IMG/VR virus record: IMGVR_UViG_2531839179_000017
DNA from: a virus
Taxonomy: Duplodnaviria > Heunggongvirae > Uroviricota > Caudoviricetes
Length of the DNA: 14,423 bases
Reading direction: 5' to 3' (one strand)
Below, piece by piece: positions 3,200 to 10,667 of the stretch (within the stretch, counting starts at the first letter, position 1; every line of letters begins with the position of its first letter). Made by a program: the position numbers and the translations under genes. The notes beneath the pieces are model-generated. The model was given only the letters and a program-made list of their open reading frames with translations. It was not told the origin of the DNA and made no database searches.

Positions 3200-3244
3200 G
3201 CTTATTTTTTCGCCAGATTATTTTTCAAAAAATTCCCGTGCATA

Positions 3245-3310
3245 AAAATTTGAGGAGGCGGTCGGTGCCCGGCGGGGTCGGGTTTGTCCTGAAAACGCCC
3301 CCCACCCCGT
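3245..3310. other. Candidate cos / packaging-initiation region in the HNH-terS gap
   Basis: About 290-bp gap between HNH stop (3489) and terS start (3199) containing a GC-rich block GAGGAGGCGGTCGGTGCCCGGCGGGGTCGGG flanked by AT-rich runs. In HK97-like cos phages the cos site lies between the HNH gene and terS. Position-based inference only. Confidence 0.3.
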
Positions 3311-3488
3311 CATACAGCCTCATCAGCGATTGCGGAAACATTCCATAACCTCGCGGTCACGGTCGGTTAATCGCTTCGCTGTGATGCGTTCTGCGCGTCC
3401 TGACGCTTTATCTTTATGCCCTGTTTCCTGTGTCTTCCATGCGTCACGCTGCCTTATAAGTCCACGGATAAGGCGGTTTTGTTCCCGC

Positions 3489-6381: not shown

Positions 6382-7539
6382 TTAATCGTCGTCCTGTGGC
6401 AGTTCCAGAATCTTGATCGCGTTCGAATCCACCACGCCACCGCCTAAATATTTCTGCGTGAAAATTTTGATGAAGCCCGGCTCTGTGAGGTTGTCCGGTC
6501 TGGTGCGAACACCTGTTTCGTGATCAACAATGTAGTAACCGCGTTTGAAGTCACCCAGGGCAATAACGTTATCAGGCATAAACTCCAGATATTCGACCGG
6601 AAGGCCCAGCAACGTATCAGGATCACCCGCCTGTAAACGGTCGCGCCAGATGTAATCACCGTTCGCGTTCTTCACCTTCTGAAGTTTTGCCGCCGTCGTG
6701 GAGTTAACCACCCAGACCGCGTTTTTGCGGTATTTTTTACGTAATGCAAATTTCAGATCGATCAGCGGGTCCGCAGATGTCCACGCCAGAGATTCGGAAG
6801 GTTTAATTACCTGCAACGTACCAAAATCACGCTCTTTGTCGTTCTTCTCTGCACGGGGTACGGATAAAAAACCTTTTGCTTTTTTGTCACCGTCGCCCAC
6901 AACCAGATCGCTTTCTTCGGTTTCCGTGAAGGTGTCGCCAATCTCACCCGTCAGCCATGAAAGGATGTCCACATCGGAAAAATCCACGATTTCCTGTGTG
7001 GTGCGCGGGTACGCATAGACCGGATACAGCTTAATGCTCACCTCGTTAATCTGCGGGGTGCTGGTCTGTTCGCGTGTCTTACCCTCTTCACCGTGGTTAA
7101 CGGTCGCACCGCCAGCGGAAACAAGCTGCTTAAACTCGTTGCTGCTGATTTTCTTCACGGTACAGATGCGGCGCATGGTGGATTCATCCGTCAGCATTCG
7201 CATGATTTCGGTGTTCAGTTCGGGGATAACGGTATAACCACCATCAGCGGGAACGCCTGTACTTAATGCGCGGGTTTCACCTGTCAGAATGTAGTTGCGT
7301 AGTTCTGCGGGGTCAGTGGTCTGGCTGCTTTTACCTGGCTTGCTGCGCTCTTCGTCTGCAATGGCTTCAAGGCGGGAAATGTCTTTATCGAGGGATTCAG
7401 CTTTAGCGCGTAATTCGTCAAATTTTGCGCCCTCAGCATCGTTAAGACTGCGGTTTTCTTTTTCCGCGTTCTCCAGCATGTCGCGCATCTGATTTTTAAT
7501 GGCGGTTTTCTGCTGGCGTAATTCGATTATTCTCGGCAT
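6382..7539 (-). CDS. Major capsid protein (HK97 fold) with N-terminal coiled-coil delta/scaffold domain
   Basis: 385-aa ORF, ATG at 7539 with AGGA about 9 nt upstream; charged coiled-coil N-terminus of about 100 aa followed by an HK97-like capsid body. Confidence 0.85.
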   Translation of the reverse strand: MPRIIELRQQKTAIKNQMRDMLENAEKENRSLNDAEGAKFDELRAKAESLDKDISRLEAIADEERSKPGKSSQTTDPAELRNYILTGETRALSTGVPADGGYTVIPELNTEIMRMLTDESTMRRICTVKKISSNEFKQLVSAGGATVNHGEEGKTREQTSTPQINEVSIKLYPVYAYPRTTQEIVDFSDVDILSWLTGEIGDTFTETEESDLVVGDGDKKAKGFLSVPRAEKNDKERDFGTLQVIKPSESLAWTSADPLIDLKFALRKKYRKNAVWVVNSTTAAKLQKVKNANGDYIWRDRLQAGDPDTLLGLPVEYLEFMPDNVIALGDFKRGYYIVDHETGVRTRPDNLTEPGFIKIFTQKYLGGGVVDSNAIKILELPQDDD

Positions 7540-7546
7540 AAAAAAA

Positions 7547-7576
7547 GTCCTGGGGTTAAGTAAGGAACTCCAGGAC
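7547..7576 (-). promoter_or_regulatory. Hairpin in the capsid leader that sequesters the Shine-Dalgarno; attenuator-like
   Basis: On the mRNA strand: GUCCUGG, 16-nt loop, CCAGGAC, then U7, then AUG (7539). The AGGA ribosome-binding site lies in the 3' arm of the stem and the U-run runs into the start codon. Confidence 0.4.
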
Positions 7577-7628
7577 GCGGCAAAAACTCAACCGTTTTTC
7601 ATAAGGAAATCAGTAATCGCACCGATCG

Positions 7629-7678
7629 TTTTCCCGCCTGGTAATGAATATTGGCGAGCACATTAACAGGCGGGAAAA
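7629..7678. promoter_or_regulatory. Perfect 12-bp inverted repeat (TTTTCCCGCCTG ... CAGGCGGGAAAA) with 26-bp spacer upstream of the capsid operon
   Basis: Exact 12/12 complementarity at 7629-7640 and 7667-7678, in the 290-bp gap between the early operon terminator and the capsid gene. Confidence 0.5.
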
Positions 7679-7795
7679 TGGCCCCAGCGTCCTGGCACCA
7701 CGGGCGAGAATAATCATGATTCAGGTCGGGTAAAATATGCCGTTCCGGTCAGCGAGCAACGTGGAACAACCACGAACAAATAATTTACAAAACAT

Positions 7796-7820
7796 GACAA
7801 AAAGCCGGATTGCTCCGGCT
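7796..7820 (-). terminator. Rho-independent terminator ending the early/replication operon
   Basis: Minus-strand RNA: AGCCGGA-GCAA-UCCGGCU followed by UUUUUGUCAUGUUUU, beginning 6 nt after the TAA stop (7827-7829) of the PerC-like gene. Confidence 0.7.
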
Positions 7821-7826
7821 GTGTGA

Positions 7827-8099
7827 TTATCTGTCCTGGTAATTTCGCCATATTTCATCGCTTACACCATCTATACCCATTTCAGCATAAGTGCGATCTA
7901 CTGCCTTTCTCAGGTCTCCGAAGTTATCCGGCGGCTCCGGTGGCTTCTGTGCCTTCCTGGAACATTCCAGCCGTCGCATCGTAACCTGATGCCGTTCCTT
8001 GTCTGTCTCCACCAGCAGCATGACTTCACCCCATCGCGCCGCCGCCCTCCGGTAAAAGCCTTTCGCCTCGAGTTCTTCCGCTATGCGGTCATGTACCAT
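7827..8099 (-). CDS. PerC-family-like small transcriptional regulator
   Basis: Start chosen at ATG 8099 (MVHDRIAEELEAKGFYRRAAARWGEV...) with GAGGGGG 5 nt upstream; the track's longer ORF starts at a GTG inside the ssb gene. The AE.LE.KG..RRAA.RW motif matches my recollection of PerC/Pch-type activators (recall only). Confidence 0.45.
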   Translation of the reverse strand: MVHDRIAEELEAKGFYRRAAARWGEVMLLVETDKERHQVTMRRLECSRKAQKPPEPPDNFGDLRKAVDRTYAEMGIDGVSDEIWRNYQDR

Positions 8100-8109
8100 C
8101 GCCACCCCC

Positions 8110-8520
8110 TCAGAACGGAATACCGTCACCGTAAGGGTCATCGCCTCCCGCTGGTGGCTGATTACCCTGTGTGCCTGTGGTTTTGCGTCTGTTCCCGCCA
8201 GGACGTGCCGCACGGGCACTGATTACGCTGTCTGCAATAACCTGATAACCCTGCCGCGTTTCCCCGTTCTGTCCGGTCCACTGGCTGACCTGCATCGTGC
8301 CGGATACGCTGGCAACGTCGCCTTTTTGATGTTTAGCCAGGAAGTCGGCCTGCTTACCAAATGCGATGACCGATAGCCATAACGTAGCCTGCCCATCCTG
8401 CGCCTGACTACATGGCAACGATACCGCCATACGTGCCAGCGTCATTGGTGTGCCCTTGCTGGTCTGTTTTACCTGCGGGTCGTCCACCAGCCGCCCGTAA
8501 GCTGCTATCTGTGCTGTCAT
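8110..8520 (-). CDS. ssb: Single-stranded DNA-binding protein
   Basis: 136-aa ORF, ATG at 8520 overlapping the upstream stop as ATGA; OB-fold-like core (LWLSVIAFGKQADFLAKHQKGDVASVSGTMQVSQW), Gly/Pro-rich linker and acidic C-terminal tail ending DDPYGDGIPF, the classic SSB tip. Confidence 0.8.
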   Translation of the reverse strand: MTAQIAAYGRLVDDPQVKQTSKGTPMTLARMAVSLPCSQAQDGQATLWLSVIAFGKQADFLAKHQKGDVASVSGTMQVSQWTGQNGETRQGYQVIADSVISARAARPGGNRRKTTGTQGNQPPAGGDDPYGDGIPF

Positions 8521-8768
8521 GATTCCACCTCTCCGGTTTTAACGTTGATGGTTGTCACCTGTTCAGCTTCCGCAATCTCCCGCTCTGTCAGCGTGGCAAA
8601 ATTTGCCGCCGTCGTGGTCATGAATGCGCTTATCAGTTCGGGATGTGCTTTCGCGTATCCTTCCCCCGCGTGGCGGTCTATCGTTCTGATTGCCACCTTT
8701 AAGGCGTGCTCTGTCATGTCTAACGCTTTATATTTTGGCTCTGTTCTGTCTCTGTGTTTTTGAGTCAT
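8517..8768 (-). CDS. Hypothetical protein downstream of the origin
   Basis: Start chosen at ATG 8768 (MTQKHRDRTEPKYKALDMTEHALK..., about 84 aa), so the iteron cluster stays intergenic; the track's 127-aa version would read through the iterons. Translationally coupled to ssb. Confidence 0.45.
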   Translation of the reverse strand: MTQKHRDRTEPKYKALDMTEHALKVAIRTIDRHAGEGYAKAHPELISAFMTTTAANFATLTEREIAEAEQVTTINVKTGEVES

Positions 8769-8769
8769 T

Positions 8770-8975
8770 TGCCCACCTCTACCCACTTTTTTCGCCCACT
8801 TTTTACGTTTTCCCACTTCGTCCAACGTGGGAAATTTGGGATTTATATCATCTTGTTTCATAGGTATTTTTTTAGTGCCCACTTTTTGGGATATATACAC
8901 GTGGGAAAGTGGGTAATTTTGTTAAAATTCCGTTAAATCGCCCACCTTTCCCACTTTTAATGCCCACTTTTTACA
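8770..8975. repeat. Iteron cluster with AT-rich spacer: putative replication origin
   Basis: At least nine direct copies of a CCCAC(T)nTTT-type motif (for example GCCCACTTTTT at 8794, 8877 and 8962; CCCACTTTT at 8782 and 8950) plus inverted copies (GTGGGAAA at 8827 and 8901), interrupted by AT-rich stretches at 8838-8876; immediately 3' of the replicative ATPase gene. Confidence 0.7.
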
Positions 8976-10371
8976 GTGGTCCTACATCATCACCGTCAAT
9001 GTAGATCACGTCGTCTTTTTCCAGTTTGGCTAACCATCGTTTAAGGTGTTTTGTGTCATACCCCAGCTTTTTCATATCGTCACGTAACAGCGGGATCGTG
9101 CACTTGTCGCCGTGCTGTGTGCGTGAACGTATGCATCCCCATAGCGCGGTATGGTTTTCCGTCTTGTTGCCTGCCTCCTCGATGCGCTCCAGTTCAACGG
9201 GAGGGCGCGGCTTATCCACCACCACCAGCGACGTGATTAATTCACCGTCAGCGTCGGTAAAAAGCTCCACCACGCGTAAGTCATATGCGGCTTCTTTGAG
9301 TTCCTCCGCGTCCTTCATTTTGGTGCATGAGATAACCAGCGCTTCGCTTCCTGCGTCCTCCCTGCGTATCCGGTATTCAGCATCCAGCGAAGCACGAAAT
9401 GCACTGGAACCGCGCGCGCCTTTCGTCTCATCCTTGCCGGAATGGTGAACCACCAGCACCGTGGCCCCTGTGCGTCGTTTCAGTTCGTCACAACCACGGA
9501 TAAACGCCCCCATATCACGGGAATCATTTTCATCATTCCCACCAAAGCAACGCGCCAGCGTATCCAGAATAATCATGCGTACAGGTTTACCCGTTTCCCG
9601 CTCCACCTGACGGGCAGCGATAACCATTTCATCAACATCAAGCGGGGCAGCCGGAAAGATGGGGCGGTTTACCAGATACAGATTTTTCACCTGCTCATCG
9701 TGCACAACCTCCCAGGCTTTTACACGACGCGGAACACCTATACCGCCTTCACCAACCACATAGAGAACCGCACCATGTGCAACCCTGCGGCCTCCCCACT
9801 GGCGACCAGTGGCAACATGGCACGCCCACGATCCGGCAAGGAATGATTTATAGGACCCGCTAGCCCCGTATATGCTGCATAGCGATACCGCCGGAATAAT
9901 CCCCTTAACCACGTAATCCAGTTGCGTGTCGTATCCGGTAGATCCAACGCTCATCGGTAGCGTGGTTTTTCGCTGGTGGTTTTTTTCTTCCGCCGGCTCT
10001 TTCCCGCGCACCCGTTCCAGGTATTCGCGCCAGTTCTCCCGCATATGGCTGTGCATCCCTTCGGGGTAATAATTCGCATCAGTTACACCCGCCGCCGCCA
10101 GCTTGTGCGCAATGGCATTAATATTTGATGGCCTGATGTGGCCTGCCTTGTACAGCCGGACACAATAGCGCCCCTCGTCGATGATTCTCAGGTCTGCCAG
10201 TTCATCCAGTTGATCATCAGCCAGCACAACGGGAGGCACATTATCGCCAGCCAGTCGCCCGTCCTGTTCCTGCCACTGTTTCGCATGTGCCCAGGCATCA
10301 CTACCCGCAAAAATAATGACTTCGGTCATCTTGTCGTAAGGCTGTTTTTTTAAGTTCGGTGCGCTTTTCAT
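8971..10371 (-). CDS. Replication initiator ATPase/helicase (RecA-like, AAA_25/RepA-type) with C-terminal winged-helix-like region
   Basis: 466-aa ORF, ATG at 10371 overlapping the upstream stop (ATGA); Walker A GASGSYKS, Walker B-like RMIILDTLARCF, conserved VLVVHHSGKD...GARGSSA block typical of RepA/DnaB-like RecA-fold replicative ATPases. Confidence 0.8.
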   Translation of the reverse strand: MKSAPNLKKQPYDKMTEVIIFAGSDAWAHAKQWQEQDGRLAGDNVPPVVLADDQLDELADLRIIDEGRYCVRLYKAGHIRPSNINAIAHKLAAAGVTDANYYPEGMHSHMRENWREYLERVRGKEPAEEKNHQRKTTLPMSVGSTGYDTQLDYVVKGIIPAVSLCSIYGASGSYKSFLAGSWACHVATGRQWGGRRVAHGAVLYVVGEGGIGVPRRVKAWEVVHDEQVKNLYLVNRPIFPAAPLDVDEMVIAARQVERETGKPVRMIILDTLARCFGGNDENDSRDMGAFIRGCDELKRRTGATVLVVHHSGKDETKGARGSSAFRASLDAEYRIRREDAGSEALVISCTKMKDAEELKEAAYDLRVVELFTDADGELITSLVVVDKPRPPVELERIEEAGNKTENHTALWGCIRSRTQHGDKCTIPLLRDDMKKLGYDTKHLKRWLAKLEKDDVIYIDGDDVGPL

Positions 10372-10667
10372 TTCTTGCCCCTGAATCCGTTAATCATGGT
10401 TTTCAGCTTCTGGATGTTTGCCCGTGCCCTGGCGTTGCTGGTGGGCACGTTATGCGGCGCGGTCTGTACCAGAGAAAAATCACGCCGGAACTGATAAACA
10501 GGCATCACGCAATCATATTCGTAACCTTCACGGCGGTAAGTTACGCACCGTCCCGCCACGCCCTTAATCATTACCGTGCCGCCGTACTGGTCGCGGTAAA
10601 TATCACCGCGCATAAATTTAGGGTGAGTGTTGCCACTGGCAGTTAAGCCAGAATATTTAAGTTTCAT
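10368..10667 (-). CDS. Hypothetical protein (DUF4222-like by recall)
   Basis: 99-aa ORF, ATG at 10667 with GGAG 8 nt upstream; motif GDIYRDQYGGTVMIKGV...YRREGYEYDCVMPVYQFRRDF resembles the prophage DUF4222 family as I remember it. Confidence 0.5.
   Translation of the reverse strand: MKLKYSGLTASGNTHPKFMRGDIYRDQYGGTVMIKGVAGRCVTYRREGYEYDCVMPVYQFRRDFSLVQTAPHNVPTSNARARANIQKLKTMINGFRGKK

Follow-up and report, generated by a model that had tools for sequence, protein, structure and literature searches.

A pchE-type PerC gene at the end of the replication operon of a capsid-forming phage satellite, and its likely targets

A gene for a small PerC-like regulator lies between the replication genes and the head genes of a phage satellite, and the question that it raises is what it regulates: late genes of its own element, genes of a helper phage or genes of the bacterial host. 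All three had been proposed in a first-pass annotation of the DNA analysed here, a stretch of 14,423 nucleotides (IMG/VR record IMGVR_UViG_2531839179_000017) that is called the window below. The answer depends on what the gene is, on what its product resembles, on how it is placed relative to the capsid operon, and on whether the two travel together.

A pchE orthologue in a capsid-forming PICI

The open reading frame occupies exactly the interval first annotated (Table 1), with its ATG at 8099-8097 and its TAA at 7829-7827 on the minus strand; the product starts MVHDRIAEELEAKGFYRRAAARWGEV, and the motif AE.LE.KG..RRAA.RW corresponds to residues 7-23. Its assignment to the PerC/Pch family, already made in the first-pass annotation, is borne out over the full length by the Pfam PerC model PF06069 (E 4.5e-45; 152.3 bits for a gathering score of 22.6 bits; profile positions 1-89 of 90), and PHROG 994 is matched as well (E 2.3e-46). 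RefSeq labels a 100% identical copy of the 273-bp CDS in another genome ‘PerC family transcriptional regulator’. PerC of EPEC plasmid pMAR2 shares 40% identity with the window protein over 88 aa (E 1e-25). Eleven residues reach a conservation of at least 90% in an alignment of 61 family members (mean column identity 26%), and the window protein has them all (D4, A7, L10, E11, G14, R17, R18, A19, R22, W23 and C46). The closest characterized protein is PchE (ECs_1588) of E. coli O157:H7 Sakai, identical at 88 of 89 positions and likewise 90 aa long. Since Sp7 carries its annotated pchE in the same slot, the window gene is the known group-3 PerC homologue PchE. The open reading frame is thus a pchE orthologue and a full-length member of the PerC family. 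Among 18 distinct 273-nt alleles from related loci, dN/dS is 0.25-0.30 (median 0.25) in both halves of the protein, and a value of ∼0.25 indicates a real gene under purifying selection rather than a chance reading frame. A 130-aa version with a GTG start (to 8219) overlaps ssb, and its PerC domain begins only at residue 41; therefore the 90-aa form is the correct one. Gene, family and presence in this type of element have all been published, and since the gene is already named and annotated, its finding by itself adds nothing new.

The element in the window, a complete capsid-forming phage-inducible chromosomal island (cf-PICI), is of the EcCIEDL933/Sp7/CP-933C type and is integrated in tqsA. 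It has the features that define these ∼10-15 kb elements (10.1101/2022.09.08.507074), namely int, alpA, a replication module and a complete capsid/packaging module, with neither tail nor lysis genes; the ORF map and family matches account for capsid, protease, portal, connectors, HNH, TerS and TerL. On the minus strand, the early half runs from the integrase through AlpA, an Icd-like gene, small ORFs and a DUF4222 (RgdR-like) gene to a RepA-type helicase. An AT-rich iteron region, a small ORF, ssb, perC and a 287-bp spacer follow. The packaging half then continues with an HK97-type capsid gene, prohead protease, portal, head closure/connector proteins, HNH, TerS and TerL. The nearest complete genome is that of E. 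coli 2013C-4991 (98.6% identity over 98% of the window), where the element splits tqsA. This gene, which encodes an AI-2 transporter, is represented by positions 1-165 of the window and by 1442-1585 and 16142-17047 of locus L001.

The closest known system is the prototype cf-PICI of Sakai, known as Sp7, CP-933C, O-island 51 or EcCIEDL933 (PMC3378721; 10.1101/2022.09.08.507074), and PchE figures in the OI-51/Sp7 gene list (PMC3378721). Both elements have the order ssb-pchE-terminator-capsid, with a 100% identical capsid gene and a ∼97% identical leader. They differ in that Sp7 lies next to phoQ/roxA, encodes a primase rather than a RepA-type helicase and contains the 354-bp ECs_1589 cassette. 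EcCIEDL933 and EcCICFT073 are both integrated between roxA and phoQ, in contrast to the tqsA site found here. The integrases of the window and of Sp7 are 92% identical.

Table 1. Coordinates of the features around perC in the window
Feature	Position	Strand	Description and basis
pchE-type PerC-family gene	7827..8099	(-)	90 aa + stop codon; Pfam PF06069, ECs_1588 identity, dN/dS
ssb	8110..8520	(-)	directly upstream in the same operon; Pfam SSB E 4.2e-17; TIGR00621
Shine-Dalgarno-like GGGGGTGG	8102..8109	(-)	right after the ssb stop (8112-8110), 2 nt before the perC ATG
Intrinsic terminator CAGCCGGAGCAATCCGGC-TTTTT	7798..7821	(-)	terminator scan and RNA fold; closes the early/replication operon
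Conserved 17-mer TTTTGTAAATTATTTGT	7776..7792	(-)	start of the capsid leader; 12-mer core once per cf-PICI locus
Two adjacent hairpins	7679-7700 and 7629-7678 (arms TTTTCCCGCCTG / CAGGCGGGAAAA)	(-)	RNAalifold
Hairpin GTCCTGG...CCAGGAC + T7	7537..7576	(-)	abuts the capsid ATG; sequence and fold
RepA-type helicase (AAA_25)	8971..10371	(-)	replication gene of the operon; Pfam PF13481 E 3.5e-44; PHROG 2850
HK97-type major capsid gene	6382..7539	(-)	first gene of the packaging module; TIGR01554 E 7e-88; Pfam Phage_capsid

Several other parts of the element deserve mention. Just downstream of the RepA helicase gene, the AT-rich interval 8775-8975 (∼40% GC) is dense in CCCACTTT-type iterons in both orientations and is expected to be the replication origin of the PICI. 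Because of these iterons, a 127-aa ORF call (8517-8900) is over-extended; RefSeq has an 83-aa gene at the same place (8517-8768). In HNH-type packaging systems, cos is usually found in the HNH-terS gap, and the corresponding non-coding interval of 289 bp (3200-3488) is likely to be the cos site of the satellite. The DUF4222 gene (10368-10667, minus strand) encodes a protein 79% identical to ECs_1581 (RgdR), a published OI-51 regulator of type III secretion, so that with PerC two small regulators earlier tied to LEE/motility control are found on one element. The other small ORFs have no Pfam match, and neither PerC nor its neighbouring small ORFs are matched by PADLOC.

Fold, relatives and published phenotypes

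The AlphaFold2 model of the window protein (mean pLDDT 81.5) comprises a TPR-like N-domain of three helices (residues 5-50, pLDDT 88-94), a proline-rich linker and a less confident, acidic C-terminal helix. Taken as a whole the protein is not basic, with a predicted pI of 6.1; the N-domain reaches 9.1, whereas the C-terminal part is at 4.5. No DNA- or RNA-polymerase-binding fold (zinc finger, HTH or Q-like) is recognised in the model; a sequence search of the PDB finds no relative, and Foldseek of the model against the PDB returns nothing below E = 1. A link emerges with the ANR (AraC negative regulator) family, whose members, such as Aar, are also small all-helical proteins. The NCBIfam ANR model NF033650 aligns with residues 7-51 over nearly its whole 54 positions (17.9 bits, E 0.002), which lies below the 32-bit cut-off of the family, so that the window protein is not an ANR member by this model. 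When 61 diverse proteins of the PerC family are compared with the same profile, 48 match it at E <= 0.01 (best E 3e-7). Collectively, these profile matches support a PerC/ANR superfamily, read as remote homology only. Such a link was suspected earlier by Pick and co-workers for another PICI PerC-like gene (PMC11773190). PerC proteins exceed ANR proteins by ∼35 residues and have a conserved helix at the C terminus.

Among characterized relatives, PerC of EPEC (pMAR2 perABC) and the group-1 proteins PchA/B/C of EHEC share with the window protein the N-terminal motif and the C-terminal MG...FRNY. The prototype perC lies on a plasmid behind the AraC-type gene perA, in contrast to the satellite-borne window gene. 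PchA/PerC-type proteins relieve silencing by H-NS/StpA/Hha/YdgT (PMC4764244), and the ANR protein Aar of EAEC binds H-NS directly (PMC5570504). PerC and PchA-C activate LEE1/ler strongly, by at least 4-fold at the ler promoter for PchA-C, whereas PchE does so less than 2-fold (PMC5931665). According to the citation of Porter 2005 in PMC11773190, PchE had no effect on LEE1-lacZ. The first-pass description of PerC-type proteins as prophage-borne activators of host virulence regulons calls for a caveat in the case of PchE; nor is prophage carriage general, the prototype being plasmid-borne and PerC matches occurring in only 2 of 50,697 records of sequenced phages.

The phenotypes published for PchE itself, mostly from plasmid over-expression, concern the host surface. 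Over-expression represses csgD by more than 7-fold and biofilm by nearly 7-fold in a ler-independent manner (PMC6265319), raises flhDC expression and flagella and lowers stpA 2.5-fold (PMC7369912). Deletion of pchE has a basal phenotype, a slight increase in Congo-red binding at 37 C (PMC6265319). The gene is not induced by SOS; its expression falls about 2- to 7-fold (PMC5931665, PMC6265319). As the window protein is 99% identical to PchE, the effects on csgD (PMC6265319) and flhDC (PMC7369912) agree with host genes as one of the targets initially proposed.

The reading that we favour, and hold to be reasonably probable, is that PchE is an accessory, host-directed regulator encoded at the 3′ end of the early operon, which acts through protein contacts, most probably with H-NS-family proteins, and shifts csgD and flhDC. 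It would behave like PchA/PerC and ANR proteins by contacting silencers (H-NS/StpA/Hha) or other regulators, the partner being a supposition from these relatives, and such contact would re-set silenced host promoters, with curli/csgD going down and flhDC/flagella going up. The sub-threshold ANR match weighs against this host-directed role. A broader proposal, which we consider unlikely, is that PerC/Pch and ANR proteins form one superfamily of single TPR-like adaptors docking on H-NS-family silencers. As PICI cargo the gene would be switched on with satellite replication, and its product would either turn curli off and flagella on, thereby re-programming the surface of the host, or de-silence foreign DNA. 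If true, satellite induction would be linked to the behaviour of the host in the particle-releasing cell, and not to capsid production.

The ANR resemblance can also be read as a sign that PerC is an ANR-type anti-activator, sequestering an AraC/XylS-type or other activator instead of acting on H-NS, and thus effectively a repressor. The coverage of residues 7-51 by the ANR model and the matches of most family members argue for it, as does repression of LEE1 by EcCIMP1_025, a PICI PerC-like protein (PMC11773190), and of csgD by PchE (PMC6265319). Repression of LEE1 is, however, known for EcCIMP1_025 and is not a property assigned to the window allele. The score below the ANR cut-off, the C-terminal extension (MG...FRxY) missing from 54-aa ANR proteins, the activation of flhDC by PchE (PMC7369912) and the fact that the element encodes no AraC-family partner make this reading improbable.

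The operon end and the capsid leader

The first-pass placement of perC, last in the replication operon and directly ahead of the head genes, proved accurate: the gene starts 10 nt past ssb, a terminator comes next and the capsid gene lies 287 bp downstream. The strong, GC-rich terminator hairpin (7803-7820) and its T-run sit immediately past the perC stop codon, and this is the only terminator-like site on the minus strand between a promoter-like site (∼11.9 kb) and perC. The 10-nt gap suggests co-transcription with ssb and, together with the lone terminator, fits perC as the last gene of the replication operon. Under the host-directed role preferred above, pchE would be the last cistron of the early/replication operon of the satellite, probably translationally coupled to ssb, and from this position a low basal level of PchE in the lysogen would follow. 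In Gram-negative PICIs, early genes need AlpA, and it is the helper phage that triggers alpA expression (PMC6092414). The level of PchE would thus be expected to rise once the helper switches on AlpA and the element replicates.

The slot after perC is not uniform. In Sakai, the same terminator is present in two copies flanking the 354-bp ECs_1589 cassette, which is absent from the window. Roughly one in two E. coli-type cf-PICI loci has this cassette (encoding a 74-aa protein) directly after pchE, giving two classes of pre-capsid gap, 648 bp with it and 291 bp without. Its insertion point would correspond to 7821-7826 of the window, and in Sakai Sp7 it spans L002 8046-8400. Homologues of ECs_1589 (41% identity) occupy the same pre-capsid slot in distant PerC-less cf-PICIs (L051 4957-5217 and L059 5494-5769); the cassette protein has no Pfam or PADLOC match. 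In E. albertii (L003 9462-9998), a 178-aa ORF is found between ssb and perC, as in some PICIs. In several E. coli genomes, a RefSeq-annotated ProQ/FINO-family protein adjoins the PerC gene, which adds a further small regulator to this variable slot. The region ahead of the packaging operon has been described as variable, with immune systems expected there (10.1101/2025.02.11.637232).

Beyond the terminator, the capsid leader opens with a conserved 17-mer. Each cf-PICI locus (L011-L062) has a single copy of its 12-mer core TTTGTAAATTAT, 215-255 bp ahead of the capsid ATG, even in lineages that lack both PerC and a homologous ssb; classical PICIs do not contain it. Two hairpins follow the 12-mer, conserved in structure and not in sequence (four aligned PerC-less cf-PICI loci). 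RNAalifold finds compensatory changes in 8 of their 20 pairs, contributed by only ∼3 lineages, and 94% of cells are paired versus 30-58% in slid controls. The third hairpin, next to the capsid gene, contains the AGGA ribosome-binding site within its 3′ arm, and folding of the whole perC-capsid spacer gives z = -4.27. The interval 7300-9100, the 287-bp spacer included, contains no consensus sigma-70 promoter, and a Rfam scan of the same interval (E <= 1) gives one meaningless miRNA match only. To judge by the sequence, the leader could be an activator-dependent promoter followed by a structured 5′ leader. A second 17-mer near alpA would have suggested AlpA as a common factor, but there is none, near alpA or elsewhere in the element. 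A CII-like TTGT-N6-TTGC direct repeat at 7754-7773 was dropped for its poor spacing to any -10-like hexamer. The leader elements are also less likely to be a cos site, considering the usual location in the HNH-terS gap. In the portion of the cf-PICI literature covered, no account of the control of the packaging operon was found.

This arrangement invites the view that PerC is the late-gene activator of the satellite, turning on, or antiterminating into, the capsid/packaging operon. The gene stands at the boundary of early and late modules in cf-PICIs and in classical PICIs, a terminator separates it from a capsid gene that has no consensus sigma-70 promoter nearby, the leader is highly structured, and nearly all E. 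coli-type cf-PICI loci carry perC. The boundary position and the promoter-less spacer accordingly count against the preferred host-directed role, since they suit a late regulator just as well. Nevertheless, the model has no DNA-binding fold, and the element has no further copy of the 17-mer. The distribution of the gene, considered next, bears directly on this view and leaves it with little probability.

Distribution of perC and the choice of target

A survey by capsid protein collected 58 IMG/VR loci. Those of E. coli type with enough upstream sequence number 38, of which 36 have a full-length perC and two a truncated copy. This near-constancy speaks against a purely accessory gene and could mean that perC matters to the lineage, although the loci are closely related. 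Outside this lineage, six distant cf-PICI loci (66-70% capsid identity, with 6 kb of upstream sequence) contain neither PerC (profile search, E <= 1) nor a homologous ssb. The leader persists in them all the same: the 12-mer is exact in five, the sixth (L059) has the variant TTTGTAATTAAT at the same position, and the hairpins are kept in the four loci that were aligned. Classical PICIs tell the same story. A PerC-like ORF is absent from those of AVS0282 and XJ6.1 (L009 and L010; tblastn and family HMM, E <= 1), and in the AVS0282 element the same terminator comes straight after ssb and leads into the same downstream promoter region as EcCICFT073 has. Moreover, perC alleles of 69-100% identity are found beside capsid genes of 97-100% identity, so the two shuffle independently. 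PerC is thus not co-inherited with the late operon and its cis elements, the behaviour that would mark a late-gene activator. With perC-less elements keeping terminator and leader, element late genes become a disfavoured target among those first proposed.

EcCICFT073 offers a useful comparison. Its PerC-like gene (82% identity, 82 aa) occupies the same slot after ssb and precedes the same terminator, and belongs to the PICI-borne allele family noted by Fillol-Salom et al. 2018 (PMC6092414). Downstream, however, the HK97-type packaging module found here is replaced by a capsid/decoration set of lambda type, which has a promoter region to itself.

The gene also spreads more widely than the capsid module. 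Of 5426 complete E. coli genomes, 966 contain DNA of pchE type (790 with perC at a coverage of at least 80%) and 361 the capsid gene. In three loci, perC follows primase/ssb in elements without an HK97 module (contig scan with narrow peptide patterns). The PerC family is small, with only 241 cluster representatives at E <= 0.001 among 1.84 billion proteins, and the traceable matches are enterobacterial. A PerC match at E <= 1 is found in 370 plasmid records, one of them being pMAR2 with the prototype perABC. One of the two phage matches is phi456, a P1-like phage-plasmid in which the PerC homologue lies amid IS elements. The PerC-less PICIs and cf-PICIs, the allele shuffling and the wider spread together mark perC as an optional passenger of the replication module; probably, then, it is a ‘moron’-like accessory and not the activator of the capsid/packaging operon. 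By the same comparisons of loci, the leader would belong to the packaging module and be recognised by something other than PerC. It follows that the control of the cf-PICI capsid operon should be sought elsewhere, for which the conserved leader motif and hairpins are the place to start. On the frequencies given above, PerC-type genes rank among the commonest passengers of E. coli phage satellites.

An optional gene, uncoupled from capsid module and leader, points to a role directed at the host, or possibly at the helper phage. PerC might boost late/tail genes of the helper, of which the satellite needs only the tails, or interfere with helper expression. Regulators directed at helpers are common in satellites, such as Delta of P4 and the Pti proteins of SaPIs. 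PerC would be expected to be co-expressed with the induced operon of the satellite, and its relatives counteract H-NS, a silencer of prophage DNA (PMC4764244). Against this stand the presence of the family on non-phage plasmids (the 370 records above, EPEC pMAR2 among them) and in helper-less strains, and the situation in O157, where resident prophages do not induce EcCIEDL933 (10.1101/2022.09.08.507074) and yet pchE gives host phenotypes. A helper-directed function is therefore unlikely, and the host-directed role remains the preferred one. Finally, that perC has no function or is decaying, or that it serves in anti-phage defence, as its variable pre-packaging location (10.1101/2025.02.11.637232) and the two truncated copies might suggest, is very improbable in view of its purifying selection, its near full-length presence in hundreds of genomes, the lack of a PADLOC match and the published deletion and over-expression phenotypes (PMC6265319).

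Two further observations concern the classical PICIs. In EcCICFT073 (L007 ∼8750-8850, minus strand as shown), the spacer after perC contains a second terminator, followed by an AT-rich promoter-like region with the palindromes ATGATTATAATCAT and AACTGGATGAACATCCAGTT; the latter fits the CTG-N10-CAG core of a LexA box, and the same region is found in the perC-less PICI of AVS0282. The perC-less PICI of E. coli XJ6.1 interrupts the major capsid gene of a lambda-like prophage, with capsid fragments on both sides, and carries a TIR-domain gene near its morphogenesis genes; a helper-embedded configuration resembling it has been described (PMC10111431).
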